Assembly (NCBI RefSeq): GCF_004010195.1
Contig: NC_057718.1
Coordinates: 80,607,241-80,663,081, forward strand
DNA length: 55,841 bases
Source: Chiloscyllium plagiosum
Lineage: Eukaryota
Direction: 5' to 3'
Positions within the stretch are counted from its first letter, which is position 1. The number at the start of each line of letters is the position of its first letter. The translations under genes and the position numbers were made by a program. Positions 1 through 55,841 of the stretch are shown piece by piece. The notes beneath the pieces are model-generated. The model saw nothing but the letters and a program-made list of their open reading frames with translations, made no database searches and was not told where the DNA came from.

Positions 1-128
1 TTCCTGAAGAAGGGCTTATGCCCGAAACGTCGATTCTCCTGTTCCCTGGATGCTGCCTGACCTGCTGCGCTTTTCCAGCAACACATTTCCAGCTCTGATC
101 TCCAGCATCTGCAGACCTCACTTTCTCC
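1..128 (+). mobile_element. Short PLE 3' fragment with minimal hammerhead core (family A)
   Basis: CTGAAGA(4-10) A GGGC-ttat-GCCC GAAA(24-27) C GTC(29-31), then the family body and 3' tail ...ctgcagacctcactttctcc. Cut by the window start. Confidence 0.8.
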
Positions 129-5550: not shown

Positions 5551-5829
5551 TAATCAAGGTTATCTTGAAGCCACACCTCAGTAATGACCACTAGATCATA
5601 CTTATTTGTCTCAATTTGTACTACGAGTTCATCTGTTTTGTTTTGAATGCACTGTACCATCAAATGCAATGCCTTAAGTGTTGTTTTGTTATTTTTTAAT
5701 TCTAGTCTTACCTGCTGATTTGTCCCATAACCTGTATTATCTGTCCTTTCCTGTCGTTGTCTGTTTATTATTATTCCTTCCTTTATTGCCTTTTCCTCAC
5801 TTTTTGTTGCACCTCAACTTCCCAAATTT

Positions 5830-5949
5830 AAGGAGGGCCTGTGCCCGAAACGTCGAATCTCCTGTTCCCTGGATGCTGCCTGACCTGCTGTGCTGTTCCA
5901 GCAATAAAGTTTCAACTTTGATCTCCAGCATCTGCAGACCTCACTTTCT
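5830..5949 (+). mobile_element. Family A PLE/hammerhead insert, single arm
   Basis: gggc-ctgt-gcccgaaacgtcgaatc...tail. TSD cttcccaaattt at 5818-5829 and 5950-5961. 5'-truncated inside the core. Confidence 0.85.
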
Positions 5950-6619
5950 CTTCCCAAATTTGGGCCCTTGCCCCCACTATTTCACTTAAAACCCACATTA
6001 TCTCCCTGGTTATGTGGTTTGAAAGAGCATCATTCCAAATATGATTCAGGTGTAGACAATTCCCACAGTACAGATCCCACCTTCCCTAGTATTCTTGCCA
6101 GTAGCTTATGAACTGGAACCTACGCCAGTCTTTCAGCTATGCATTCATCTCTTTAACCTTGCTTATCCTTTTCAAATTTTCGCATGGGTCAGGTAATAAT
6201 CTAGAGATTGTTATCTTGATAGAGTTATTTGGTAGAGTGTATGTTTATTTTTTGCAGTTAGCTACGAAGTCATCTTCATACAATGCTGCAGAGTTCCTTA
6301 ATAGAACTTAGGTTTATGACCTATTTGAGCATCAAAGCAGGTGGAGACTGTGACACCCCAAGGTAGATGATAGCTTTTTCCTCTTTAATAATGGCCTTTC
6401 TCCAAGAACCAGCCATTAACAGACCCTATCAATAGCACAGTTAATGATGATAGCCCTCAATTTCTTCATGTTAGGACTCTGCTGCTAACCTTTGTGCTAA
6501 CCTCTCATTTGGCTGCTTGTCACTGCATGAATGCTGTCACAGAACCACACTTTGCTGAGTCACGAATTTCATCAACTCCCCCACTGATGTGCCAACCATT
6601 CTCCAAGTCCAGGGCTTAA

Positions 6620-10791: not shown

Positions 10792-12703
10792 GTGAGTTGG
10801 AGTACAGTCATGGCAGACACTGCAAGACTGAAAGTAACGTTGCCTATTGCCAAACAAGTTTACTTCACAAATTAATCAGATAGAGTCATTTCGCAGTAAA
10901 TAGCAGCAAGAAAAAGGTCTCCTGAGTCAGTTGCCCACCTTTGCTAACAATTAAATTATATCCAACGAAGGAGATGTGAGTCAGCTTTCCTTTGAGACTA
11001 TTCTCTCCCAGCCAATCCATCTCCATTTTTATGAGGACCTGGCAACCCAAGCTATTTAAAACAGTCTATCAAGTAATGGAACTAGCTAAATGCATCAAGC
11101 AAGCAAGCATTTATCTCTCAAGCTTCATCTGTTCCTGCAGAATGTTTCCAAATGAAAGGTTTAATTACTTAAATGGATAAGGCATGCAATCTTGACCTAT
11201 GTGATGTGGAGCAGAATACTAATGAAGGTCAATCCTTATTCTATTGCTGCTTTCAATAGCTGCAGCACATGTTAGCTGTATGCAGTTATGCATCTTCAAA
11301 TGGCCTAATCTTACCCATTTCTCTGGCAAAAAAGGAAGTAACTTCAAATAAAATGCAATATTTAATGAATACTCTGAAACTAGTATACAAAGCATAACGT
11401 AACAGGATAGTCATGTGTGAAAATTATGAAACAGTTTAAAGTGCTATATCTTACTGTGAACCAGACAGATTGAAATACACGTTATTTCCATTGTGGAATT
11501 CATTAGTTTTTATTGCACAATCTTAGATTTAGCTCAATGTTAATTTTGTTTTGGCAATGTTTACAATTGCATAATATTTTAAAATATTTATATGGGCATT
11601 TGTTAACAAAGTGGTATTGTTTCTTCTTGATTCCATAAAGTTCAAAAGCATCTATAAAGTTGGTAGAATGTTTAAAATACAATACTGATGCAATACTTGA
11701 AGTGATTTATTTTGATGACTTTGTTACTGGATACTGTTATAAAGCAGAGGTTGACCCTCCTCTAAGAACTAAAACTGAAACACCTGTAGTCTGTAAAAAG
11801 AGCGCGAAAAATGGTGTAACCTGCTTTTCAACAACTTCTAGTGATTGAATAAAATACCTACCTTAAGAAAAAAAGCCCATAATTAGGAAAAGATGGCTTC
11901 ATTCTTTTTTCTTTTAAACCCTTAACTCCATTATATTACTAGATCCATAGTTCATTAATCTTGAGTTACACATTTTAGACTAATTCTACTTGTATAGAAC
12001 ATTGAACATGACTGTTTCTATCTTATATGAGCATTTTTTTTAAAACTCGTGATAAAGCATCCTCAATAATATTTTCATGACCTGCAACATATACAATCTG
12101 TAAATTAAATCCTTGAAACATGAGACTCAAACAAATTAATCTGGTGTTCTTGTCCTTAGTCTTTCCAGAAATGTCAAAGGATTGTAACAGGTATACACAA
12201 TAGTCTCTGATGCATTGTTTGCAATGTAAACATTAACATGTTGTAAAGCCATTACCAAACTCCATAACTTTTTTCAATCATTGAACATTTTTCCGGCGGA
12301 TATTGAGTTTTTTTGAAAAATAACTGATTCGCCTTTCAATTCCATAATAATCTTCCTGTAGCAACATAGCTCCAACACCTGCATCACCTGCATTGATGGC
12401 AACTTTGAAGGGTTTCAAAACATTTGGCATGGCTAAAACTAATGCAGTAGTTAACTCTGCTTTTAAATTCTTAAATACCTCCTGGCGTTGTTCTGTCCAC
12501 TGAAATTTTGTTTTTTTTTAACAAATCTTGGTACAAATTTTCTGTAGAATTCACTCAATCCTAAAAATCGTAGATGGTCTTTGTCTTCATGTTCCTTGGT
12601 GTCATCTGTTATTTTCGATGTTGTGCCCTAAAATATCACTTCCACCTTCACAAGTTCTGTTTTTGACAATGTTATGACCGATCTTGCCCTCCATAGACTT
12701 TTC

Positions 12704-12916
12704 GAGGAGAAAGTGAGGACTGCAGATGCTGGAGATCAGAGCTGAAAATGTGTTGCTGGAAAAGCGCAGCAGGTCAGGCAGCATCCAAGGAACAGGAGAA
12801 TCGACGTTCCTGGAGCATTGCTTCCTGAAGAAGGGCTTATGCCCGAAACGTTGATTCTCCTGTTCCTTGGATGCTGCCTGACCTGCTGCGCTTTTCCAGC
12901 AACACATTTTCAGCTC
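12704..12916. mobile_element. Family A fold-back insert (tail on minus arm)
   Basis: Inverted arms. TSD ctccatagact at 12689-12699 and 12914-12924. Plus-strand core CTGAAGA at 12825. Confidence 0.88.
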
Positions 12917-14478
12917 CATAGACTCTTACAGAGCTCTGTTAAATGCTCCATGTGATCTTTCCACAAATGGCAAAAGATCAATAAGTCATCTTTGTAGATG
13001 GCAAATTAGTCAATCCTGCAACAACTCTGTTCATAGGCCATTGAAAAGCGGCTGGCACGTTTTTCATTCCAAAGGGCATCACTTTAAATTGATATAGCCC
13101 ATTTGGGGTTACAAAAGCAGAAACATCTTTCACTCTTTGTTACTCTTTGCCAGTAATCACAAAGTAAATCCAACTTTGTGATGTAAGTGACTTGTCCTAC
13201 TTTTTTCACAAAATCCTCCAGTGGGTATATGAGTCAGATTTAGTCATAGTGTTGAACTTCCAATAGTTTACACAGAATTGTTGAGTACCAGCAGGTTTGG
13301 AAGCTAACATGCTAGGCGAACTCCACTCACTTTGATCCATCTCTGTGATGTCCTCCTGGAGCATTGCTTCCTCTTCCTTCTGAACCTGCACTGCTTTGAG
13401 AGGATTATGCCTGTAGGTGTGTTGTTTTATTGGAACAGCATTCCCTACGTCAACCTCCTACTAGGGCAATAGTCTTCCCTATTCTATTTCTTCATGGATC
13501 CTCATCACACTGTAACAAGTCTTTCAAATCAGTTCTCTGTTCCATGGACAGATAACTTACTACCCTACCCCATCCCTTGAGGACTTCCTCATTATTCAAT
13601 TTATTTGGAGGCACATCAAACTCCAAATCATCGGGATTTGATTCCTCACTTTGAGTGGCAGTAACAAATACCTGTTTCTCTGGATCCCTTTCCCTGTCTT
13701 AGTAATATTTTAGCATGTTCAAATGACATACCCAAAATATGTTTTCCTATCTGGCATCTTTACCAGATAATTCACCTGACCTAACTTCTTCTCGATCTGA
13801 CAGGGACCACTAAACCTTGCTTTCGAGGGATTTCCTACCCTGGTAACGGCACCAATACTTTATCCCCATGGGCGAACGTATAAATTTTAGATTTTTTATC
13901 TGCTCCTTGCTTCATTAAGTGCTGTGCACCTTCAAATGTTGTAAAACTAATTCACCTACTCTCTTCAATCTTTCTCTCACCTCCGATACATAATCCAACT
14001 GTGAAATTCTGACTTCGGACCTATCAACTTTTCTTAATTAATTTCAAAGGCCCTCTGAATATCAATTTGAATGAGGTAAACTGAGTCAATTAATTGGAGC
14101 ATCTCTAATTGCAAATCATATATATGGGATACCTTTATCCCATTCATTTGGGTAATCCTGACTTTAAGCCCTCAACATGGTCTTTAGGGTCTGATGCTAC
14201 CTTTCCAATGCTCCCTGGGATTCAGGACTGTATACACTTGATGCAAAGTGTTTGATTCTAAACTGTCCATGACCACCTTAAATAATTTGACAATAAAATT
14301 GGACCCCTGGTCTGACTGAATCCCACTGGGTAATCCATAACTCTTAAAGAAAGCAAGCAACTTTTTGTCAACCATTTTTGCCTTTACATTCTGTAATAGA
14401 ATTGCCTAAGAAAACCCAGTAGACACATCCATTACAGTTAGCAAATACTGGTTCCTACGTTTGGTTTTCGGGAGAGGA

Positions 14479-14688
14479 GATGGAAATGTGTTGCTGGAAA
14501 AGCGCAGCAGGTCAGGCAGCATCTAGGGAACAGGAGAATCGACGTTTCGGGCATTAGCCCTTCTTCAGGAAGGGCTAATGCCCGAAACGTCGATTCTCCT
14601 GTTCCCTACATGGTGCCTGACCTGCTGCGCTTTTCCAGCAACACATTTCCATCTCTGATCTCCAGCATCTGCAGACCTCACTTTCTCC
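14479..14688. mobile_element. Family A fold-back insert (tail on plus arm)
   Basis: Inverted arms meet at cccttcttcaggaagggc. TSD tttcgggagagga at 14466-14478 and 14689-14701. Confidence 0.9.
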
Positions 14689-14841
14689 TTTCGGGAGAGG
14701 ACCTGCATAATCAATTATAACCCATATAAAAGGTTCTTCAAATGTGGGAATTGGCATCAAGGGTGTTGATGTGATCACCTCCTATGGCTTTCCCACCATC
14801 TGACACATATGACAGGTACGGCAAAATTCAATCTTTACGTA

Positions 14842-16153
14842 CAGAGGAACCTCAGTTATCCAAATATCAATTATCTGAATTTCATATTATCCGAACAAGA
14901 TCTCAAAGTCCCACAAAAACATTACCTCAAAGAGATAAGTGAATTCGGATTACCTGTACTGAAAAACATGTGAAAATTCTGGGAAAATGCTGGTAGGTAT
15001 AGGGAAAGCTGGATGACGAAAGAAATTGGAGATTTGGTTAAGAAAAAGAAGGAAGCGTATGTCAGGTATAGACAGAATAGATCGAGTGAATCCTTAGAAG
15101 AGTATAAAGGCAATAGGAGTATACCTGAGAGATAAATCAGGAAGGAAAAAAGGAGACATGAGATAGCTTTGGCAATTAGAGTTAATGAGAATCCAAAGGA
15201 ATTTTACAAATAGATTAGGGACAAAAGGGTAACTAGGGAGAAAATAGGGCCCCTCAAAGATCAGCAAGGCAGCCTTTGTGTGGAGCTGCAGGAGATGGGG
15301 AAGATACTGAACAAGTATTTTACATCAGTATTTACTGTGGAAAAGGACATGGAACATATGGAATGTAGGGAAATGGATGGTGACATCTTGAAAAATGTCC
15401 ATATTACAGAGGAGGAAGTGCTGGATGTCTTGAAATGCATAAAGGTGGATAAATCCCCAGGACCTGATCAGGTGTACCCGAGAACCATGTGGGAAGCTAG
15501 GAAAGTGATTGCTGGGGCTATTGCTGAGATATTTGTATCATCGTTAGTCACAGGTGAGATGCCAGAAGACTGGAGGTTGGCTAACGTGGTGCCACTTTTT
15601 AAGAAAGGTGGTAAGGACAAGCCAGGGAACTATAGACCAGTGAGTATCACTCTAAAAACAGAGAAACACAAGCACCTCAAGCAACAGAGGCTGGAGTTTT
15701 TTTTACGTAATGGGTAGTTACACAGCCCTTTGCAAAATTAAGTGCTTTATTCCTGTCACTTCACCGAGCCATTCCTGAAAAATATGGCAGAGAAAATAAA
15801 CATATGTGCGAGGCAGTGCTTCTGTCTTTCTATCACAAAACTGAGTTCAGCAGAAATGCTCTTGTGATTGTAGAAGCTGTTCAGGACCTTGCTTGATGCT
15901 GGGATTTCATATATTTATGTGCTGGTAAGGGTTTAGTCCTTCTCAGTTTAACCTGCAAATTGCAGAATGCAAAGATTAATTTGTTTAAATAGCAGATTTA
16001 TCAAAATTATAGGTTTAAACAAACTCTCCAGTAAAACGCAGCGTTAGATCAGTATGGTTTCCCTTGTTTAATGTCACATCAATTATCCAAATAATCAGTT
16101 AACCGAACTAAATATTGCTTGCCCGTCTTGTTCAGATAATCGAGGTTCCTCTG
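14842..16153. mobile_element. Tigger/pogo-like non-autonomous DNA transposon containing a CR1 fragment
   Basis: TIRs cagaggaacctcagttatcc ... gataatcgaggttcctctg, flanked by TA on both sides. Inserted into the Gypsy integrase. Confidence 0.8.
14990..15645 (+). mobile_element. CR1 ORF2 internal fragment
   Basis: KSPGPDQVYPR...PEDWRLANVVPLFKKGGKDKPGNYRPVS. Close to the copy at 47210-48396. Confidence 0.85.
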
Positions 16154-19403: not shown

Positions 19404-20111
19404 ATGCTTTTCCCATTTTACAATTTTACAAACATCAAATTCTAGCTTTCTGCCTGCAATCAACAATTCCTCTACCTAGCTTCACAACAATATGGAGGTC
19501 AATACAAATATCTGGAATGTCAGTTAGTCGCATATATTTTATACATATAGAATGATGGCTTTATTTTCTAGTTGTAGTGCAGGCCCAGCATATTGGGGAT
19601 TAAGGTGGTTGCTTAGTCATGGAAGGACAGCACATCTCTGAAAGAAAATTTTATGGGATTTCCTTAGAGATTTTTATGTGATCCCTGAAAAATAAATAAA
19701 ATGTTCATACATATTGCAGGTAAGTAAGTAAATGCATTTAATCCTTTTGTACTCACATGGCTAAAAAATAGCAATACTCGGGACAAACTCTAGACTGTTA
19801 TTGTCCCTGATAAGTGGATAAGCTTTTATAAGGGATGTCTTGTGGTGCAATGGTAATGTCCCCGTCTTTGAATCACAACTCTAGATTCAAGTCCATGATG
19901 AGCACAAAAGATATGGACAAGCAGTCTGATTATCCACCTGAAAATCCTTTCATAATCCTGATGGTATGACTATGAGAATCTCCTGGTTTGCCAGAATGAT
20001 ATGGTCATTGCAAAACATCAGTTTCTCATGTTTAAAACAGCTCTATGCTCAAGTTCTTACCACAGGCTACTCCCTCATAAGTGTGTGAAAATCTTTCTAA
20101 TTCTGCCTTGA

Positions 20112-20245
20112 GTTGAAAAAAGGAAGAAGGGCTTATGCCCGAAACGTCGATTCTCCTACTCCTCGGATGCTGCCTGGCCTGCTGTATTTTTCCAGCACCA
20201 CATTTTTCAACTCTGGTCTCCAGCATCTGCAGTCCTCACTTTCTC
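20112..20245 (+). mobile_element. Family A insert with a vestigial inverted arm (gagttgaaaaa)
   Basis: TSD ctaattctgccttga / ctacttctgccttga. The inverted stub is the reverse complement of tttttcaactc, just before the tail. Confidence 0.82.
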
Positions 20246-21423
20246 CTACTTCTGCCTTGAATCAATTCAATTACACAGACTGCCACTTCTTGGTGGAAAA
20301 GAATTCCATTGGCTGACAGCCATCTGAGAGAAATAATTTCCCCTAATCGCTGTTTTAGTGGGAGTTCTCTTGTTCTAAAACTGTCTCTTGGTTCTGATTT
20401 CTAATATTAATACAATTCTTCTAGAACCTGTCAAAACTGCAGGGATCATTTTACCTCCTGACTCTCTTTAATTTCTGAGATAAATAAACATAAATAAAAG
20501 ATATTATCACAGAAGGTAAAGATTTGTTCTGCATCATTCCCTTGTGCACATTTCCATTTATTGATTTTCTCGTCAGTGATACCTGTATCTGGTTGTCTTA
20601 TATTTAACAGTTTTAGTTGCAGTAGACTGGCTCGTACATAGTAGAGATGGAGTTAGATAATCCTGTAACAGCCTCTGGGAGAAGATCTGAGCAAAGTACA
20701 AGTTCCATCTAGCCTTAATTCAAATCCAGGGGTATTAGCATTAATTGAATGGGAGCCTGTGCTCTTTTTTGCTCAGTTATTAAGCCTCAGCTGATTGGAT
20801 ATGACTGTGACAGAATCTTTTAATATAAGTCCATGAACTATGTTGGTTGAAGAGCTTCAAAAAAATTGCCAAGACATATGTTGAATTTGTTTCTTAGTCA
20901 ATGGCACGTGGACAACTGTGATTCGTTGTCAGAGGAAGGAGGCCTTTGAAATTATAGCCAGTTAATTCTGCCAGATCAAGTCCTGACATGCAGTACTTTT
21001 GCTTTATTTAGGTGAATGCAGTACTGTAGGGCAGAGCGGTGACCTTGTCAAGAAATCACAGGATGATATCCCATGTAATTGTATGAAAAGGAACAGATTC
21101 AAAAAAGTATAACCCTTCTAAGAATCAGATGACATGCTGTAAATCATCAAAGAAACTGGGTGTTTCAGGCCCAATTGTAACTTTGAAGTTTAGAACTTTT
21201 CTTCTTTGTATTCAAGAAAATTGATGCACAAAATCTCCACTGATAAATCAGGGCATCTTGTCTTGTTAGAGTCCATTGCACCTTGCAGAATTACTGTACC
21301 GGTCATCTAACGTTTGTTTACTTGGAACCATTTTCCTACATGAGGTGCCTCCATGGTCAATGGCTATATTTACCTTGAACCCTTCATCCATGCAAGCATT
21401 GGTCTTATAATATCAGCTTGTTG

Positions 21424-21635
21424 ATGGAAATGTGTTGCTGGAAAAGCGCAGCAGGTCAGGCAGCATCTAGGGAACAGGAGAATCGACGTTTCGGGCATTA
21501 GCCCTTCTTCCTGAAGAAGGGCTAATGCCCGAAACGTCGATTCTCCTGTTCCCTAGATGCTGCCTGACCTGCTGCGCTTTTCCAGCAACACATTTCCATC
21601 TCTGATCTCCAGCATCTGCAGACCTCACTTTCTCC
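21424..21635. mobile_element. Family A fold-back insert with apparently perfect arms
   Basis: TSD ataatatcagcttgttg at 21407-21423 and 21636-21652. Intact plus core at 21511-21538. Confidence 0.92.
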
Positions 21636-21791
21636 ATAATATCAGCTTGTTGTCAGCTAACAGTGAAAGTTGCAGGGAGAACTATGGAATCAACTTTCTC
21701 AGAAAGTACAGCTGTTGTTTGGTAATATATTTCTAAATTTGAAGTATTTAGGATACCAAAAATTCTATTGCTTATGGTGATATTTTAGCAT

Positions 21792-21939
21792 TTTAATTTT
21801 TTTATAAATGTATTCACAAATCTTATTTCCAATAGCAGAGGAACAGAGGGGTAGGCTGAAAAATTTTTTTTCAGTCTACCCCTCTGTTCCTCTGCTATTG
21901 GAAATAAGATTTGTGAACACATTTACAAAAAAAATTAAA
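21792..21939. repeat. Near-perfect palindrome with arms of about 72 bp
   Basis: ttcacaaatcttatttccaatagcagaggaacagaggggtaggctgaaaaa / tttttcagtctacccctctgttcctctgctattggaaataagatttgtgaa. Confidence 0.9.
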
Positions 21940-23253
21940 TTTTTTAAAAATGATTTATGATTTTAAAGGTTACATTTTCTGACCACTCATTCCAAATTTC
22001 AAAAGCAAAACATTATGGCTGCTGGAAACCTAAAATTAAAACCGGAAGTGCTGGGAATATTGAGAAGGTCAAGCAGCAAATGTGCAGACCGAAATAGTGT
22101 TAATGAGTAGAATTTTAGCCTTTCTGAAGTGGTAATAATGATAGCAACTGACATAACTTCATCATTCGAGACTCCAAAGATCAGATTCTCAATGTGAAGA
22201 AAGGTTCTCCAGATTAAGTTCCCTGGCCTTGGGTGATGAATGGAGTGGAAAGAGACTTATTTTGTATATCTACATCTCATTATTAACATAGCTGGCAGTA
22301 TTAACATCACACTTAGAAATTTTCTTTGTATTAAAGAAAATTAATGCACAAAATTTCCACTGATAAAACAGAGCATTTTGTCTTGTCTTGTCAGAGTCCA
22401 TTGCATCTTGCAGAATTACTGTACCAGTCATCTATCGTTTGTTTCCATGGAACCACTTTCCTACATGAGGTGCTTCCATGGTCAATGGCCACATTTATCT
22501 TGAACCCTTCATGCATGCAAGCATTGGTCTTACAACATCAGCTTGTGTCAGCCCAACTCAGCCACCAGTTCATTCCAAGATTTTGGAACTGACTGATAGT
22601 TAGGACTTATAAGCTCGTGCCAGCTAATTCTGCACGAGGAACATCTGGCATTCTGTACAACTATGCAAAGGTTTAGTGCTGATATCGAACCACGCATATT
22701 TGGGTCTTAGTCTGCTTTTTACAAAGTCTATAGTGCTTAATATAGATAGTTTATTTGAAGATTTTAGTAGAAAATGAAGTGTTCCTGTAGAGGCAGGTAA
22801 CTTCAGCATCCTAGCCTGCTTTGTAATGCACAACACCTTTAGAGCTGCTATAGAGTTGGGAATCCTTTGTGATATAACCTACATTTTAGCATGTAAGGTG
22901 TTGAGTGCTGCTTTAGAAGCAGGCAACCTTTGTGGTATCACCTGCTGTCTGCAGAAGGAGGTGGTCTGTTTATAATAGCACTTAAGTGCAAATGTCTTAA
23001 TCAGATAGGATATGGAAATGTTGCTGTGTGACATGGTGTGAGTTCAACATCAGAGCTTCAATATGTACCCACAGCTTAGAGAGCAAACATATAGTATTGA
23101 CCTGAAGAAAATGTATGTAAGTCAAAGTGAATAAGCATTTAGTGGTGTAAGGATGGATTTCAGTCAGTCAGGGGAATACTTCCAAAGTCAGCTATGGGCT
23201 AGTCTGATTTCAGTTTGGCTGTTTGGCCATGGTCAGTCAGATGATTGGTCTTT

Positions 23254-23474
23254 GAGGAGAAAGTGAGGTCTGCAGATGCTCAAGATCAAAGTTGAAACTT
23301 TATTGCTGGAACAGCACAGCAGGTCAGGCAGCATCCAGGGAACAGGAGATTCGACGTTTCGGGCACAGGCCCTTCTTCAGGATTCCTGAAGAAGGGCCTG
23401 TGCCCGAAACGTCGAATCTCCTGTTCCCTGGATGCTGCCTGACCTGCTGTGCTGTTCCAGCAATAAAGTTTCAA
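23254..23474. mobile_element. Family A fold-back insert with complete hammerhead cores on both strands
   Basis: TSD cagatgattggtcttt at 23238-23253 and 23475-23490. Centre ttcttcaggattcctgaagaa. Confidence 0.92.
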
Positions 23475-23899
23475 CAGATGATTGGTCTTTTGCAAGTGCT
23501 GGGAATCCATGCCCGGGGTCGTGGTCAGTCTTTGAGACAAGCATAGGTAGCCTGGGGACTTCATGTGGTATGGTCTTGAGAGATCAGACAAGGGGATGTG
23601 ACATAGTCAGTCAGGGCTGTCCTGCCAAGTCTGTCCAGGGAATTTGGACCATAATGAATCATGGGTATTTGGTCACTAACAGTCAAGAGACTTCTCAGGG
23701 CATTTCTTAAAGTCTTAGGGAAAACAGGCTGATCATGTCTGAGGATAGATTTCATTCATTGTACTGGGATGCTGAGGAAATTGTGACAATTGCAGATAGT
23801 ACGGTGATACCTCATTGTTTATAGGAAGATACTGGAAGCTCTCAAAATAGGAGTGGCTATTCTGCTTCTAGATGGGGAGGATGAAGGGCCAAGAGAGCA

Positions 23900-26664: not shown

Positions 26665-28125
26665 AAGTCAAGGATGTTGCGGGAAGTCAGGGAAGAAATT
26701 ATGGGGCTCTTATCAGAAATATTTGTATCATTTATAACCACGGGTGAGGTGCCACATTCCTGGAGGGTGGCTAATGTTGTGCCTTTATTTAAGAAAGGCT
26801 ATAAGTGGAAGCCTGGAAACACTAAACATCAGTGGTGGGTAAATTATTGGAGGTGATTCTGAAAGATAGCATTTGCATGCATTTGGAGAGGCAAGGACAG
26901 GTTAGGGATAGTCAGCATAGTTTCATGCAAGGGATTTCGTGTCTCACAGACTTCATTTGAGTTTTTTGAGGGTGTAACCAAAAAGATTGATGAGGGTAGA
27001 ATGGTAGACATTGTTTACATGGACTTCAGTAAAGCCTTTGACAAGGTGCTGCATGATAGACTAATTAGTAAAGTTAGATCACATGGAATTCAGGGAGAGT
27101 TTGCCAATTGGATACCAAATTGGCTTTATACTCAAAGACAGAGGATAGTAGGGTTGGTTTTTGGATTCAAGACCTATGACCAATGTGTCCTGGAGGGATC
27201 GGTGCTGGCTCCACTTTTGTTTGTCATTTCAAGAAACGATTTGGATGAGAATATAAGATTAATGGTTTTTAAGTTTGCAGACTTGGTGGATGGACAGTGA
27301 AGAAGGTCATCTCAGGTTACAAAGAGATCTTGATCAACTGGGTCAATGCACTGAGGAGTGGCAGATGGAGTTTAATTTGGATAAATGCAAGGTATTTCAT
27401 TTGGTAAAACCAAAAAGGGCAAGGCTTGTACAATTAATGGTGGGACCCTGGGTAGTGTTGTTGAACAGAGAGACCTAAGGGTTCAGGTTCATATTTCTTT
27501 GCAAGTTGTATCACGGGTAGATGGTGATTAACAAGGCATTTAGCACACTTGCCTTCATTGCTCAGACCATTGAGTATCGGAGTTGGGATGTTATGTTGGG
27601 GTTGTACAGGATGTTGGTAAGGCCACTTTTGGAGCAAAGTGGTCGACCTGCTTTAGGAAGGATATTACTAAACTGGAGAGGGTTCAAAAAGATTTACCAG
27701 GATGTTGCCAAGAATGGAAGGCATGAGTTATTAAAAAATAGTTTGAATAGACGAGGACCTTTTTCACTGGAGGTTGAGGGGTGACCTTGTAGAGGTTTAT
27801 AAAATCACGAGGGGCATAGATAAGGTGAATGGCAAGGGTCTTTTCCCTGGGGTGGGGGAGTTCAAAACTAGGGGGATTATTTTAATGGTGAGAGGAGAAA
27901 AACTTAATAAGGACATGAGGGGCAACTTTTTTATATAGAGTGGTTTGTGTTTGGAATGAAGGAAGTGGTGAATGCAGGTACATTTCCAACATTTAAAAGA
28001 TATTTGGATAAGTACATGCAGGGATATGGGTCAAACACAGGCACATTGGACTAGTTTGTTGGGAACATTGTTGGTGCAGACTAGTTAGGCTGAAGAATCT
28101 GATTCCATGCTGTTAGACTCTAAGA
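26665..28125 (+). mobile_element. CR1 RT to 3' end
   Basis: [30 protein letters not shown]. Confidence 0.85.
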
Positions 28126-46236: not shown

Positions 46237-46601
46237 ATCTGAGAAAATATGTTACCCACAATGATCCATATGTGTTGGTTGGGCTGATGGAATCTCCTTC
46301 CTCTCCCTGAAGGGCTAGCTCTCTTCCATGAAGGTGGGTCTTGCAGGTCAGGACAAATCTTCTCCGCGCACTCTTCTTGGATTTCCGCGCACTCTTCTGG
46401 CAGAAGTCTTGCTGTGAGTCTTCGCCACATCTCCACTAAGAGGATGGCTCCCAAGGTTAGGATGAATATTTGCCAAATGCAGGCAAATGGGGCTGTATCA
46501 GTTTAGGAAATCTGGTTGGAATGGATAAGTTTGGCCAAAGGGCCTGTTTCTGTGCTTATGCTTCTATGACTATGAACTTAGCTAGTGTTAATTGCTGTCA
46601 A

Positions 46602-46697
46602 GATTAGAGTGGTGCTGGAAAAGCACAGCAGGTCAGGCAGCATCCAAGGAGCAGGAAAATCAACGTTTCAAACAGGAGCCCTTCATCAGGAATAAGA
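46602..46697 (-). mobile_element. Family A tail-less arm only
   Basis: Minus ttcCTGATGAagggctcctgtttGAAAcgttg. TSD agtgttaattgctgtcaa / agtgataattgctgtcaa. Confidence 0.78.
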
Positions 46698-47345
46698 AGT
46701 GATAATTGCTGTCAATTGGCAATTTACCACTGACCAGTGAGAATCTCATCATGCCACTTGTGAGAGGTGAAAAATATTGGTTGAAATAATTTCAACATTG
46801 AGAAACATTTCAACTGACTGCGCCAAATTTCTTGCCTGATTCTGCCACATCACTCAGAACCAGATTTCACCCAACATCTCAAAGGGAAAACAAATATCTA
46901 ATTTCATATATTTCTTCACAGATCAGTACTTTCATGACAGATGCTTGGCCAACTTAACCTCATGCAATGCTAGTATCGATGTTGGGTTAAGAAACAGGAT
47001 GAAAACAAGAGAAAGCACCAACAGAACCAGAGACATGAAGTGTGACAAGCTGCGGCTGTGGAATTGGAATTGGGGGCGTGGGGTGGGGGAAGTTGGGACC
47101 CAGGGTGATAGAGGAAAGAGATTAATCTGATATTGGTACAGTTGAAAGAAAAAGCGAGTCAAATAGTCTGGGCAGGCAGGGACAAAGCAGAGAACAAGGT
47201 AGGATTGAGGGTTTGGTTAAGAAAAAGAAGAAAGCATATGTAAGGTATAGACAGGATAGATTGTGTGAATCTTTAGAAGAGTATAAAGGAATTAGGAGTA
47301 TAATTAAGAGGGAAATCAGGAGGGCAAAAAGGGGACATGAGATAG

Positions 47346-47477
47346 CTTCCTGAAGAAGGGCTTATGCCCAAAACGTCGATTCTCCTGCTCCTTGGATGCT
47401 GCCTGACCTGCTGCACTTTTCCAGCAACACACTTTTCAGCTCTGATCTCCAGCATCTGCAGTCCTCACTTTGTCCTT
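47346..47477 (+). mobile_element. Family A single-arm insert
   Basis: Starts ttcctgaaga, GAAA mutated to AAAA. TSD tgagatag on both sides. Confidence 0.85.
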
Positions 47478-48398
47478 TGAGATAGTTTTGGCAAATAGAA
47501 CTAAGGAGAATCCAAAGGGTTTTACAAATACATTAAGGACAAAAGGGAACTAGGAAGAGAATAGGGCTCCTCAAAGATCAGCAGGGCGGCCTTTGTGTGG
47601 AGCCACAGAAAATGGGGGAGATATTAAATAAGTATTTTGCATCAGTATTTACTGTGGAAAAGGATATAGAAGATATAGACTGTAGGGAAATTGATGGTGA
47701 CACCTTGCAAAATGTACAAATTACAGAGGAGGAAGTGCTGGATGTCTTGAAATAGGTTAAGGTGGATAAATCCCCAGGACCTGATCAGGTGAACCCGAGA
47801 ACTCTGTGGGAAGCTAGAGAAGTGATTGTTAGGCCTCTTGCTGAGATATTTGTATCATCGATAGTCACAGGTGAGGTGCCGGAAGACTGGAGGTTGGCAA
47901 ATGTGGTGCCACTGTTTAAGAAAGGTGGTGAGGACAAGCCACGGAACTATAGACCAGTGAGCCTGACCTCGGTGGTGGGCAAGTTGTTGGAGGGACAGGA
48001 TGTACATGTATTTGGAAAGGCAAGGATTGATGAGGGATAGTCAACATGGCTTTGTGCGTGGGAAATCATGTTTCACAAATGTGACTGAGTTTTTTGAAGA
48101 AATAAAAAAGAGGACTGATGAGAGCAGAGCGGTGGACATGATCTATATGGACTTCAGTAAGGCGTTCGTCAAGGTTCCCCATGGGAGACAGGTTAGCAAG
48201 GTTAGATCTCATGGAATACCAGGAGAACTAGCTATTTGGATACAGAACTGGCTCAAAAGTAGAAGACAGAGGGTGGTGGTGGAGGGTTGCTTTTCAGACT
48301 GGAGGCCTGTGATCAGTGGAGTGCTACAAGGATCAGTGCTGGGACCACTACTTTTCGCCATTTATATAAATGATTTGGATGTGAGCATAAGAGATATA

Positions 48399-48640
48399 CA
48401 GAGGAACCTCGATTATCCGAATGAGATGGCCAGGCACTGTTTTGTTTGGATAACTGATTTTTTGGTTAATTGATTTCCTCTGGGGCTCGGAGTTTTCTGT
48501 GAAGTCTGCTCCCTGCTCAGGAGACTAGGCAGCAGCAGCACACTGCGAGCTAGCCCCACTCTCTGCCTGCCCCCAAAATCCTGTCCTACCCCATCCACTC
48601 CCCCCCCCAAACTCCACCCGCACCCAACACCATCCACCCG
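48399..48640. mobile_element. Tigger-like end, same family as 14842-16153
   Basis: TA followed by cagaggaacctcgattatccgaa. The second TIR is missing. Confidence 0.7.
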
Positions 48641-52990: not shown

Positions 52991-53309
52991 TTCAATGATC
53001 CTGGTAGAACTTGAAGTGAGTATCAGTGAGCAGGTTATTGCAAAGGCAAGTGCCATTTGATGGCATTGTTATGAACCCTTTCCTGGCAAAAATTGATGCT
53101 GTGATTGTGATAGCTATGCATGTTGTGGAAGACATCATGGATTGCTATAACATTTTGGAGACCCGATATTTTTTCCAGAAAAATGGTTTGGCTGTATCAA
53201 ACACAATGGTGTGAGAGTCAAGATAAAAATTGCTGGAAATATTAGAGTAAATCCAAAGTTCCCAGCTTGTCATCTGGGGGTTGTGGGTGAGGGATGAAAA
53301 AGTTAACTG

Positions 53310-53422
53310 GATCAGTGGTGCTGGAAGAGCACAGCAATTCAGGCAGCATTCGACGAGCAGCAAAATCGACGTTTTGGGCAAAAGCCCTTCATCAGGATCT
53401 GCAGTCATTGTTTTTTATCACC
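53310..53422. mobile_element. Family A-related insert: inverted tail-less arm plus a tail stub
   Basis: Minus CTGATGAagggc-tttt-gccc. Plus stub atctgcagtcattgtttt. TSD atgaaaaagttaactg at 53294-53309 and 53423-53438. Confidence 0.8.
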
Positions 53423-55345
53423 ATGAAAAAGTTAACTGTCTTACTTCAGCAAGAATATTTGTGATTGAATATTATTGCTTTGATTTTTCTTTCACCAGTT
53501 TTCTTCTTCCTACAATCCTGAAGGTGTCCATTTCTTGCTTGAGTAAAATTCCACAGTATCAGGCAAACATCTAGGCCTTCACTGAGGTGATCACTATTTT
53601 TCCACATATCTTGACAGCCAATTCTGCCAGTCAAAATGACCACAGGGTGTTAGCTAAGTCCCAGTCACATCTTCACTTCGAGCCGCACAATTCAAGACGT
53701 CATTCGGATGATATGTTAAATCAGATCTCATTGGCACTCATGCCACAAGTGTAGCATTGTAATTTCAGGTATAGAGAGTACGGTTTAATACCAGCAGGCA
53801 CCGAAGTTTTTTTTTAAAACATGCAGATTTCTTCTCATCTCAACTTCACATCGGAAAACATAAAGACAGTTTTAGGGATAAAGATCTTTTAACAAGTTTT
53901 CCTGAAATTGGTTTCTGTTCTGCCCTGTTTACAGAGGCTTATTAAGATCAAGATAAGCAGTTAACGTTTAATATTCTTAATTAAATAAAGTCCTTTTCTC
54001 TGCTGCATTCGTCGATATTTACAATTCTAACAAATATATCTTAGTGTCTGCATTATTTACTTATTCTTTTCTGACGTACATTTGGTAAGCATCCATACTT
54101 AAATCCGCCAGTCATTTATCAGAAATATTTTCCATTTAAATTTGCTGAATGACCTCCAAAAGCTGCACGAATTTATTTGTGAATTAATAGTCTGTCTATC
54201 CACAGTAATTTATGTGAGAAATCAGCTCAAGCAGCTTCATTCATTCGGTTGCTTCCGGCTCGGCCACAGAAAAATATTCACCTTCCTTCCATTTGTTCTT
54301 GAATCCAAAGCATACAGCATCTCATCAAGTGTGAAACACAGCTAATTTATAACCACCAAAAAAATGTTAGATTGAAACTAAAACTCGGCTGCTGATAAAG
54401 TAAGAAATTTGTTTGGCACTCAAAGTACAATGAGCCAACGAGAGAAAACGCGTAACCTTTTAAAGCTCAGAAGCTTGCCGAATTGAAGCTTTGAAAGAAA
54501 TACAATGAAAATCAAACTCCTTCTTAAAGTTAAACAAACACCTTCTGTCAACTGGATGACAGAGCGAAAAAAAATTCCTTATCGTTTCTGTTTCACTAGA
54601 AATGGGATTCTCCTGTTACAAAAATGTGCTAGTCAGACATCTCCAAGCTTGTTAAAGTTTCATCTTCAACTGAAAAGAGAAACCTTGTGACCATGTTGCA
54701 GTACTGTCAAAACTGTTCAAACTGGTGCCATAAACTATCCGTTGGTGAATTTTCCAAGTCCAGCTCCAAGGTTGAGCTGCCATTGCAATCCCATTAGGAA
54801 ATAATTAATGTTTTTTAAATGTTTCTGGTATTATTTGTCACTTTGAATGTCTTTAAATAGCATTAACTAAGGAGGAAAACATCATTATTTGGGAGGATGA
54901 CTATAAAATCGATACGTGTTTTGATGCTTTCATTTATTTTGGAGCAATACAGCTGCTCCACTGCTTTGAAACGGAGAGCAGTAGCTGTAAAAAAAACACG
55001 CAGCACGTCATGCTTCCTCACTAGCTGTGTTTTTTGTGACAGGGAGGATCACAAGCTTTGAGGGAAGGTGAGATGTGTCACGGACGTGGAGTTGAGTGAG
55101 ATGGAATAAGACAGATGCATTTATATTTCTTTCTGTTTTCAGATTTGGCTAATCTCAGGACAAAAAAAAGTCTCGCCTTCTAGAGATTTTTAACATTTTT
55201 CTGCGTTTGTGAATTGGCGATTAAAAACTAACAGTTCGCATCCCTCTGCATAATTGATTTCCTCAAACCAAGAAAATACCAACAAACTCTCTTTGTAACA
55301 TACTGTAATGGCACCAAATCCTCCAATGGTAACGTATTAATGATT

Positions 55346-55841
55346 GCTGGAAATGTGTTGCTGGAAAAGCGCAGCAGGTCAGGCAGCATCCAGGGAACAG
55401 GAGAATCGACGTTGCGGGCATAAGCCCTTCTTCAGGAATGAGGAAAGTTTGTCCAGCAGGCTAAGATAAAAGGTAGGGAGGAGGGACTTGGGGGAGGGGC
55501 GTCGGAAATGTGATAGGTGGAAAGAGGTCAAGGTGAGGGTGATAGGCCAGACTGGGGTGGGGGCGGAGAGGTCGGGAAGAAGATTGCAGGTTAGGAAGGC
55601 GGTGCTGAGTTCGATGGATTTGACTGAGACAAGGTGGGGGGAGGGGAAATACCTTGTCTCAGTCAAATCCATCGAACTCAGCACCGCCTTCCTAACCTGC
55701 AATCTTCTTCCCCACCTCTCCGCCCCCACCCCAGTCTGACCTATCACCCTCACCGTGACCTCTTTCCACCTACCACATTTCCGACGCCCCTCCCCCAAGT
55801 CCCTCCTCCCTACCTTTTATCTTACCCTGCTGGACAAACTT
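55346..55841. mobile_element. Long family A fold-back including upstream PLE 3' UTR, cut by the window end
   Basis: Left arm to 55635, 15-nt G-rich spacer, right arm from 55651. The minus core has GAAA changed to GCAA. Confidence 0.88.

Follow-up and report, generated by a model that had tools for sequence, protein, structure and literature searches.

Short Head-to-Head Inserts of a Penelope-Like Element in Chiloscyllium plagiosum and Their Probable Origin by Twin Priming

The window analysed here, a stretch of 55,841 nucleotides from Chiloscyllium plagiosum (G000:C9:80607241-80663081, in an assembly of 3.56 Gb), contains a series of short inserts derived from one end of a Penelope-like element (PLE). 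The focal insert, at 21424-21635, comprises a head-to-head pair of PLE ends flanked by 17-bp target duplications, with the arms 21423-21510 and 21513-21600 being 100% complementary and forming an 88-bp perfect inverted pair; only one of the two arms carries a 35-nt tail. Such pairs of one long and one short arm recur throughout the genome, and it is likely that they arise when both nicked strands of the target prime cDNA at two fixed sites of the element RNA and the two cDNAs are then joined, a process referred to as twin priming.

The Focal Insert

Element positions are numbered from the last C of the tail (position 0; window 21635), with negative values upstream; on this scale, -128 is the A of the CTCATTCC motif, -124 the first base of the hammerhead core, and -97 the base that precedes the predicted hammerhead cut. 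Long arms include the tail, and short arms begin about 35 nt before its end. The boundaries of the focal insert are fixed by an empty-site paralog located ~1 kb away (22313-22552), which contains the target once and no element. The paralog is one copy of a ~240-bp local duplication (21190-21421 and 22313-22552, 88% identical), the other copy being interrupted by the focal insert; the minus strand of both duplicates displays a short open frame of ~50 codons, possibly an exon or repeat remnant. The best 30 genome matches to the focal insert are near-identical hairpins at unrelated sites, most of them with visible duplications.

A preliminary description of the window had read a list of its inserts, the focal one included, as inverted arm pairs or remnants of such pairs, with target duplications of 11-18 bp wherever the flanks lie in the window. 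Both statements hold (Table 1): the insert at 46602 is a single short arm without a visible partner, and the duplications are present at the listed inserts with readable flanks, with one mismatch at 20112 and 46602. In the four full hairpins of the window, the short arms end at -33, -33, -35, and -37.

Genome-Wide Geometry and the Coupling of Long and Short Ends

Three types of samples were used, including (i) an unbiased sample of 118 10-kb stretches taken at round coordinates of large scaffolds (1,134,018 non-N bases), (ii) loci picked by similarity or pattern, which are biased toward the element, and (iii) 20 of the 40 listed copies of a transduced host fragment. Two hairpin sets are also distinguished: 59 young hairpins with duplications, pre-filtered to short ends between -26 and -40, and a same-centre set, selected by centre only and comprising the first 49 listed of 196 loci that share the focal centre.

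The unbiased sample contains 196 insertion events, comprising 135 single arms, 55 events with an inverted pair, and 6 direct pairs. All 55 inverted pairs are head-to-head (p about 6e-17), which fits priming from both target 3' ends, as this is the only geometry that such priming can give. One pair within ORF sequence was excluded; of the 54 scored pairs, 44 are long+short and 7 long+deeper, while an edge or a gap truncates the other 3, and neither a long+long nor a short+short combination occurs among them. The single arms of the same sample comprise 66 long, 46 short, and 3 other ends, and measured against these single-arm types the long/short pairing departs from independence with a p of about 1e-14. 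The same-centre set displays the same coupling, with 36 long+short hairpins, 1 long+long, and 12 with an unclassed end. Six of the latter are true deeper starts, from -51 to -91, against an intact duplication (L291, L308, L309, L311, L328, and L329); the others reflect indel breaks, a gap, or the lack of a duplication.

The filtered young hairpins define the two ends precisely, with the short side beginning at -33 to -37 in 51 of 59 and the long side at -1 to +2 in 44, both directly after the duplication. A sharp peak of arm starts about 35 nt from the tail end, which had been suggested as a check, is thus present at -33 to -37 in 51/59, in a set already restricted to -26 to -40. The claim that one arm always begins 33-37 nt short describes only the mode, about 85% of cases, given those 51/59 in a pre-filtered set and the much deeper starts in 6/49 of the same-centre hairpins. 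Long ends range from -3 to +10, and those at +5 to +10 match the downstream sequence of the element, which indicates that the template extended past the tail. Inverted pairs occur at a density of about 48 per Mb in the unbiased sample, which extrapolates to an estimated total of >100,000 in the genome.

A Two-Fold Symmetric Target

Target duplications measure 13-16 bp in 53 of the 59 filtered young hairpins. Outside the duplication, G is present at -3 and at -2 in 62/118 half-sites each, compared with a background of about 20% (p about 1e-14), and the enrichment appears on both sides when the sites are read strand-symmetrically. A second, independent set, drawn from other subfamilies and from transduced copies, repeats the result, with 38/74 at -3 and 31/74 at -2. 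As judged from these insertion footprints, the target is two-fold symmetric, composed of GGN, 14-15 bp, and NCC. Since the half-sites are symmetric, the likely cut on each strand lies about 1 nt 5' of CC, the pattern expected of a symmetric dimer.

Inner Ends, Insert Size, and Centres

The inner ends of the arms concentrate at a narrow boundary. Among 219 arms, the stops per 100 nt amount to 9.1 at -124 to -132, 2.1 at -110 to -123, and 0.3-0.7 elsewhere, with the same rates in the young subset. Genome-wide, 6794 exact matches of subfamily A reach -125 and 2391 reach -131, so that about 65% of its arms stop within six bases. Segments containing the ORF start often begin at -126 to -129 as well (L184, L185, L188, L189, and L192), and 156 raw RNA reads of run X21 depart from the reference exactly at -128. 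In 8/8 reference copies, the boundary coincides with an initiator-like TCATTCC, and a conserved TTAT(C/T)T precedes it by about 30 nt.

From these features, position -128 is inferred to be the mRNA 5' end. A structural stop of the reverse transcriptase (RT) may set the boundary instead, as hammerhead helix I begins at the same base. The D. virilis Penelope transcript starts inside the pseudo-LTR (PMC2377424), and an intron of the D. virilis element ends at helix I (PMC4209133). A splice acceptor at -128 was considered and rejected, with no AG upstream and no shared upstream exon. Cleavage by the hammerhead was likewise rejected as the origin of the 5' boundary: only 3/214 arms begin at the predicted cut, and hammerhead-cleaved RNA is therefore a minor template at most.

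The preliminary description had attributed hairpins of about 210 bp to the priming geometry. The hairpins themselves are confirmed, with 32/52 simple pairs spanning 174-231 bp (range 105-444); their fixed size comes from the pile-up of inner ends at -124 to -132, which that description had missed. Copies end abruptly 124-132 nt upstream of the tail end, likely at the mRNA 5' end, and this sets the size of ~210 bp.

Within this boundary the junctions vary, with 51 inner-end combinations in 58 pairs (window pairs included) and centres that carry diverse self-complementary microhomology. The arms of one pair usually agree in subfamily, and loop variants agree in most pairs. A rare sub-variant is present on both arms in 6/7 hairpins (one of the six read by eye), against 49 other variants that are one-armed, so the arms share a source and were not homogenised later. 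In old hairpins, the two arms diverged independently.

Identity of the Element and Its Hammerhead

The arms of the focal subfamily extend upstream into a GIY-YIG coding region, exemplified by L049, where a Pfam GIY-YIG match (E=6.8e-5) precedes a 3' end that is 100% identical to the focal arm. The proposal of a separate family of mini-retroelements fails on this continuity, since the arms run into the coding region of a full PLE. Frames in L257 and L258 display a pair of cysteines within the GIY-YIG motif with downstream histidines (CCHH), preceded by a C-x4-C-x2-C linker that fits the CX2-5CxxC linker-finger definition. This finger before GIY-YIG is a mark of Neptune, also present in Nematis (PMC8557442). 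By its linker motif, which Nematis shares, the partner is assigned as a Neptune-type RT/GIY-YIG PLE. RT-like motifs collinear with the endonuclease and the repeat occur in the decayed copies L102, L037, and L218, with the RVT_1 match of L102 being weak (E=0.0016, below cut-off). The anticipated autonomous RT/GIY-YIG partner is thus recovered in part: the GIY-YIG domain of a Neptune-type PLE is found, RT-like motifs only in decayed copies, and the intact ORF was not recovered. In the full-length-sized copies L248 and L250, the ORF start and the 3' repeat are ~4 kb apart and the middle consists of N gaps.

Downstream of the tail follows conserved sequence in which an ATG lies at +38; the open frame there exceeds 300 codons before it runs into assembly gaps. 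Because the element continues beyond the tail into an ORF, both arm ends are internal RNA positions, which refutes the earlier equation of the long site with the RNA 3' end. After its first ~170 codons the ORF displays an Ala/Thr-rich stretch followed by an in-frame ~33-bp tandem repeat, the part at which assemblies break (L157:7440-7960, L252, L248, and L250). The copies show a pseudo-LTR with the 30-40-bp tail, arranged in partial tandems or inverted, as is characteristic of endonuclease-positive PLEs. Partial tandems (L184, L188, L189, and L101:2129-2711) comprise a segment from -128 to 170-500 nt past the tail, followed by a second copy that starts near -128; they fit a template jump following run-off and may show one way in which pseudo-LTR tandems form.

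A minimal type I hammerhead motif is present in every arm extending to -124. An alignment of 24 copies, chosen by a pattern containing the 5' half of the core, displays the CUGANGA / GAAA / UH core, an extra base before helix II, G10.1-C11.1, and a palindromic 15.2-16.2. Helix II is paired in 93% of cells and helix I in 69%, with 0 compensatory pairs in either helix across this alignment and fold z-scores of -0.8 and -0.35. In the focal insert, the core begins at 21511 and the predicted cut lies after 21538, with the first base of helix I lost at the junction. An Rfam scan of the window returned no hammerhead and only below-threshold microRNA hairpin matches, which were rejected as chance matches to palindromes.

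A Transduced Host Fragment as a Natural Experiment

At least 39 places in the genome carry near 100% identical retrocopies of one host fragment, up to about 3.4 kb long, which ends in a hairpin of the element (L141-L160 and L051-L080, e.g. G000:C9:29536700-29546699). The retrocopies are 5'-truncated to different extents and flanked by duplications of 13-17 bp, and their terminal hairpin centre recurs in three variants, which suggests that the fragment has sub-masters. The inverted left arm and the right end are both readable in 13 of the 20 copies examined, and the two end types are opposite in 13/13 (10 short-left/long-right and 3 the reverse). The remaining 7 comprise 1 with the right end in a gap, 3 with direct-orientation ORF pieces on the left, and 3 without a left arm. 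Some 2-4 kb separate the inverted arm from the other end, and the host DNA is not mirrored, a configuration that a fold-back cannot produce. In L147, the inverted arm carries the junction of its own template.

Proposed Mechanism

The orientation of the arms, the complementarity of long and short ends, the symmetric target motif, and the symmetric distribution of the deeper arm together support twin priming. In the proposed sequence of events, a dimeric element protein would nick both target strands symmetrically, each about 1 nt 5' of CC and 14-15 bp apart, leaving 3' overhangs. Of the two strands, one would start cDNA synthesis at site L (0 to +2) and its partner at site S (about -35), usually on the same transcript, with either target strand able to take either site. 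Priming on the 5' leader, both cDNAs would run off the RNA 5' end at -128, giving products of about 130 and 95 nt, whose 3' ends would pair through 2-8 nt of self-complementary sequence and then be filled in. Where a tandem or read-through RNA serves as the template, priming on its downstream repeat would yield longer arms. The 210-bp hairpins would not form a self-propagating family; each would be a dead end, left as a by-product of the full PLE. The preliminary description had already proposed that both nicked strands prime cDNA at fixed sites and that the cDNAs are joined; that part is supported, and what falls is the placement of one site at the RNA 3' end, since the tail end is not such an end.

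Whether twin priming is also the programmed, normal integration mode of endonuclease-positive PLEs appears evenly balanced. According to this broader proposal, a symmetric dimer acting on one RNA would cut GGN(14-15 bp)NCC with a 3' stagger, one RT would be engaged at each of two sites 35 nt apart, and the tail, the inverted pseudo-LTR, and the >100,000 strong-stop-like hairpins would all be footprints of one reaction.

Several observations weigh against the twin-priming mechanism, whose steps are inferred from genomic footprints. On one RNA, the long cDNA would have to displace the short one, and long arms show no excess of stalling at site S (4 uncensored/125). Many duplication-flanked insertions are single-armed (e.g. 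5830, 46602, and 47347), inverted pairs making up only 55/196 events; 9/32 of the young single arms in the random stretches adjoin an N gap. Deeper second-arm starts occur in 6/49 same-centre hairpins, several with 2-3 nt of microhomology, and may reflect a less common route akin to repair or to L1 twin priming of the ordinary kind. Among transduced copies, 6/7 left arms that pass the junction of their own template do not follow it, and one left arm belongs to a different subfamily; template switching, a second RNA, or a gap-filling error could each suffice to explain these cases. As for the RNA 5' end, the raw RNA run X21 shows no position where many molecules start, and the base before -128 is G in 367, A in 278, and T in 80 cases genome-wide, where microhomology confounds a cap-G reading: of the 30 G cases inspected, most lie at hairpin junctions, where the G may stem from the other arm, and A is inflated by perfect palindromic centres. 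No intact continuous autonomous ORF was recovered among the copies examined, whose middles lie in gaps; apparent long open frames turned out to be N runs. Finally, in vitro work on the Poseidon element PAc of Anolis found the start site alike on both strands, with pairing within one product not assessed there (PMC11167929).

Alternative Explanations

Self-priming, or fold-back, supposes that a single cDNA, or an antisense template as put forward by Arkhipova et al. (2013), snaps back at its 3' end and copies itself, the tail difference being set when the endonuclease or repair resolves the second end. Proposed in PMC3846280 and, for the tail, in PMC8557442, it gives head-to-head repeats, identical arms, and palindromic centres, in agreement with the self-complementary microhomology of the centres, and some deep-start second arms are shallow ones (L308, L309, L311, and L328). 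It nevertheless remains improbable, as a snap-back needs the tailed arm to be the deeper one. Among the long+short pairs of the same-centre set, which share the commonest centre, the long arm reaches deeper in 16 and the short arm in 20 (20/36; p=0.62); among random pairs, the short arm exceeds the long one by at least 5 nt in 25/51, and the reverse holds in 11/51. The occurrence of the same motif on both target half-sites, and of the opposite start site in 13/13 transduced copies, with the inverted arm up to 3 kb off, also argues against it.

Dual priming supposes that each subunit of an asymmetric complex brings its own RNA and that the priming sites of the two RNAs differ. It needs no strand displacement, has been postulated for L1 (PMC2837659), and would accommodate the 6/7 left arms that follow other sequence past the template junction, the one of another subfamily, and the sole long+long case (L314), whose arms are of different sub-variants. 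On the other hand, two equal RNAs predict long+long and short+short pairs, which are seen in 0/44 random and 1/37 same-centre pairs. Besides, the sub-variants common to both arms in 6/7 and the template's own junction on the inverted arm of L147 point to a single RNA, and the assembly has gap-filling errors in repeats. This explanation is considered unlikely.

If a few master hairpins were copied whole, as a clonal palindromic mini-element that is non-autonomous, this would account for the at least 30 near-identical 212-bp copies at unrelated sites and for the 196 loci with one common centre. This explanation is largely refuted and retains very little probability: the 51 different inner-end combinations in 58 pairs contain no inherited fixed junction, the 196 loci stand against 6794 arms of that subfamily, and long ends extend to +7 to +10 along a downstream sequence that is absent from the finished hairpin. 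The common centre, moreover, shows obvious microhomology and occurs in both registers, where a master hairpin would give one.

An assembly artefact, in which short-read assembly or gap filling makes the inverted arms, is suggested by the N gaps that adjoin the window ends and many young copies and by stuttered gap fills in some repeats, yet it is scarcely credible given the exact duplications that flank whole hairpins at unique sites, the empty-site paralog, the independent divergence of the arms of old hairpins, raw RNA reads of run X21 (16 reads, 14 starts) that join opposite strands at the inner boundary, and contigs of the public run X1 that join unique flanks to both arm ends in the assembled orientation, with an overlap of only 21-24 letters (below the 31-letter threshold).

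Features of the Window

The remaining inserts are collected in Table 1 together with the parts of the focal one. Both window ends consist of element arms running into N runs. At 1-197 stands the sole tail-to-tail case seen: directly behind a young long arm (1-128) comes an older antisense arm (132-197), probably as the result of a nested insertion into an older element copy, with the left side lying in the gap.

Table 1. Element-derived features of the window and their target duplications
Feature	Position	Strand	Remarks
Long arm from -127	1..128	+	left side lost in N run
Single long arm, subfamily C	5830..5950	+	duplication 5818-5829 / 5950-5961
Hairpin, subfamily B, long arm left	12704..12916		duplication 12689-12699 / 12914-12924; 11 bp exact, 14 bp with 1 mismatch
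Hairpin, subfamily A, short arm deeper than long	14477..14689		duplication 14466-14478 / 14689-14701 (13 bp)
Long arm plus ~10 nt of inverted short arm	20112..20247	+	duplication 20097-20111 / 20246-20260; 15 bp, 1 mismatch
Left target-site duplication, focal, 17 bp	21407..21423		exact repeat of 21636-21652
Focal short arm, antisense PLE end, -35 to about -122	21424..21510	-	without tail
Focal long arm, sense PLE end, -127 to 0, subfamily A	21508..21635	+	
Minimal type I hammerhead motif, focal	21508..21542	+	from sequence; definition in PMC4209133
35-nt tail between two putative priming sites	21601..21635	+	on one arm only
Right target-site duplication, focal	21636..21652		matches left copy exactly
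Flank paralog, empty site	22313..22560	+	target once (about 22532-22547), no element; 88% identity to flank
Hairpin, subfamily C, long arm left	23254..23476		duplication 23238-23253 / 23475-23490 (16 bp)
Single short arm to -128 boundary	46602..46697	-	duplication 46584-46601 / 46698-46715; 18 bp, 1 mismatch
Single long arm from -127	47347..47476	+	duplication about 47338-47348 / 47478-47488
Old hairpin, short arm to about -127 plus ~20 nt of tail	53310..53422		duplication 53294-53309 / 53423-53438 (16 bp); long arm reduced to the ~20 nt of tail
Long hairpin, arms to about -339 and -323, short arm left	55346..55841		right end cut by 2.1-kb N run at window end; duplication therefore unreadable

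Besides the PLE inserts, the window contains an unrelated AT-rich inverted repeat at 21790-21940, with 74-bp arms that are 93% complementary; it has no second copy among the fetched loci and is not an assembly artefact, as a contig of run X1 spans it. RT-coding LINE fragments, which we take to be CR1-like, are located at 15159-15714, 26678-27297, and 47478-48470, with the long arm at 47347-47476 sitting in one of them. Elsewhere in the assembly, stuttered duplications of 66-150 bp occur in or beside element copies near N runs (L049:3200-4400, L246, and L254); they look like gap-filling errors, and long repeats in this assembly need caution.

Comparison with Known Systems and Significance

The element family and its architecture are already known, as are the inverted repeats, the tail, the two RT start sites, and the extension of both strands. 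The PLE literature describes the same architecture as found here, comprising a head-to-head repeat, a one-armed tail, a target duplication, partial tandems, host-DNA capture (PMC3846280), and a minimal hammerhead in the repeat. Endonuclease-positive PLEs carry an inverted 5'-truncated copy and a 30-40-bp tail on one end (PMC8557442; PMC3846280), the tail being described as a 34-37-bp repeat (PMC2377424). The origin of the inverted repeats and of the one-sided tail is called undefined (PMC8557442). In these accounts, the tail is optional and derives from endonuclease resolution, and the inversion derives from self-priming, whereas in C. plagiosum the two ends are strictly complementary within one insertion. 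Rotifer PLE examples show duplications of 8-10 bp, compared with 13-17 bp here, where most inserts are only ~200 bp.

The closest experimental counterpart is Poseidon PAc of Anolis, for which two internal RT start sites bound the tail in vitro (Frangieh et al. 2024, PMC11167929). The protein is a predicted dimer, both strands are nicked and extended, product length is set by the RNA 5' end, and hammerhead cleavage is dispensable (PMC11167929). This study, the only one in vitro, does not settle what follows first priming; it suggests second-strand synthesis of the ordinary kind, and its main text does not tie the two sites to inverted repeats (PMC11167929). PAc belongs to the Poseidon clade, its ORF starts inside the hammerhead, and its cut preference is ATT, whereas the element described here has a Neptune-type linker, an ATG 38 nt past the tail, and a symmetric GGN/NCC target. 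A search of full-text literature found neither the one-long/one-short coupling, nor the symmetric target, nor a twin-priming account of PLE hairpins; Figs S1 and S2 of PMC11167929 could show paired ends.

Twin or dual priming in L1 is alike in that the second nicked strand primes an inverted cDNA, duplications bound the two inverted pieces, and the junction forms by microhomology or end joining (PMC2837659). The inserts here likewise consist of inverted fragments of one element bounded by a duplication. In L1, however, the first primer anneals to poly(A), the second uses variable internal sites, and the pieces leave an internal deletion without overlap (PMC2837659); here, both sites are fixed, internal, and 35 nt apart, either strand can use either site, and the arms overlap almost fully. 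The inserts contain no poly(A), and the second site falls between -33 and -40 in the 59 filtered hairpins.

Minimal type I hammerheads of this kind are reported for metazoan PLEs, with solo copies genome-wide and, in Schistosoma, opposite-strand pairs 100-700 bp apart (PMC4209133). The same motif occurs in non-LTR retrozymes (bioRxiv 10.64898/2026.07.22.740005), which form head-to-tail arrays bounded by the cut site, unlike the head-to-head pairs described here, which start 31 nt upstream of the cut. Head-to-tail tandem units typical of retrozymes are not what the unbiased sample shows, its 196 events consisting largely of the 135 single arms and the 55 head-to-head pairs.

The genome of C. 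plagiosum holds many very young and very short insertions that record both junctions at once, and they provide predictions for the existing in vitro system, namely (i) start sites that are opposite between the two strands of one product, (ii) a 14-15-nt 3' stagger at a symmetric motif, and (iii) run-off at the RNA 5' end. If true, the proposal would explain a large class of short genomic palindromes and the frequent assembly gaps. Programmed twin priming would, in that case, need no separate second-strand priming: a retroelement related to telomerase would build both of its junctions by reverse transcription, in contrast to LINEs, in which twin priming is an accident.

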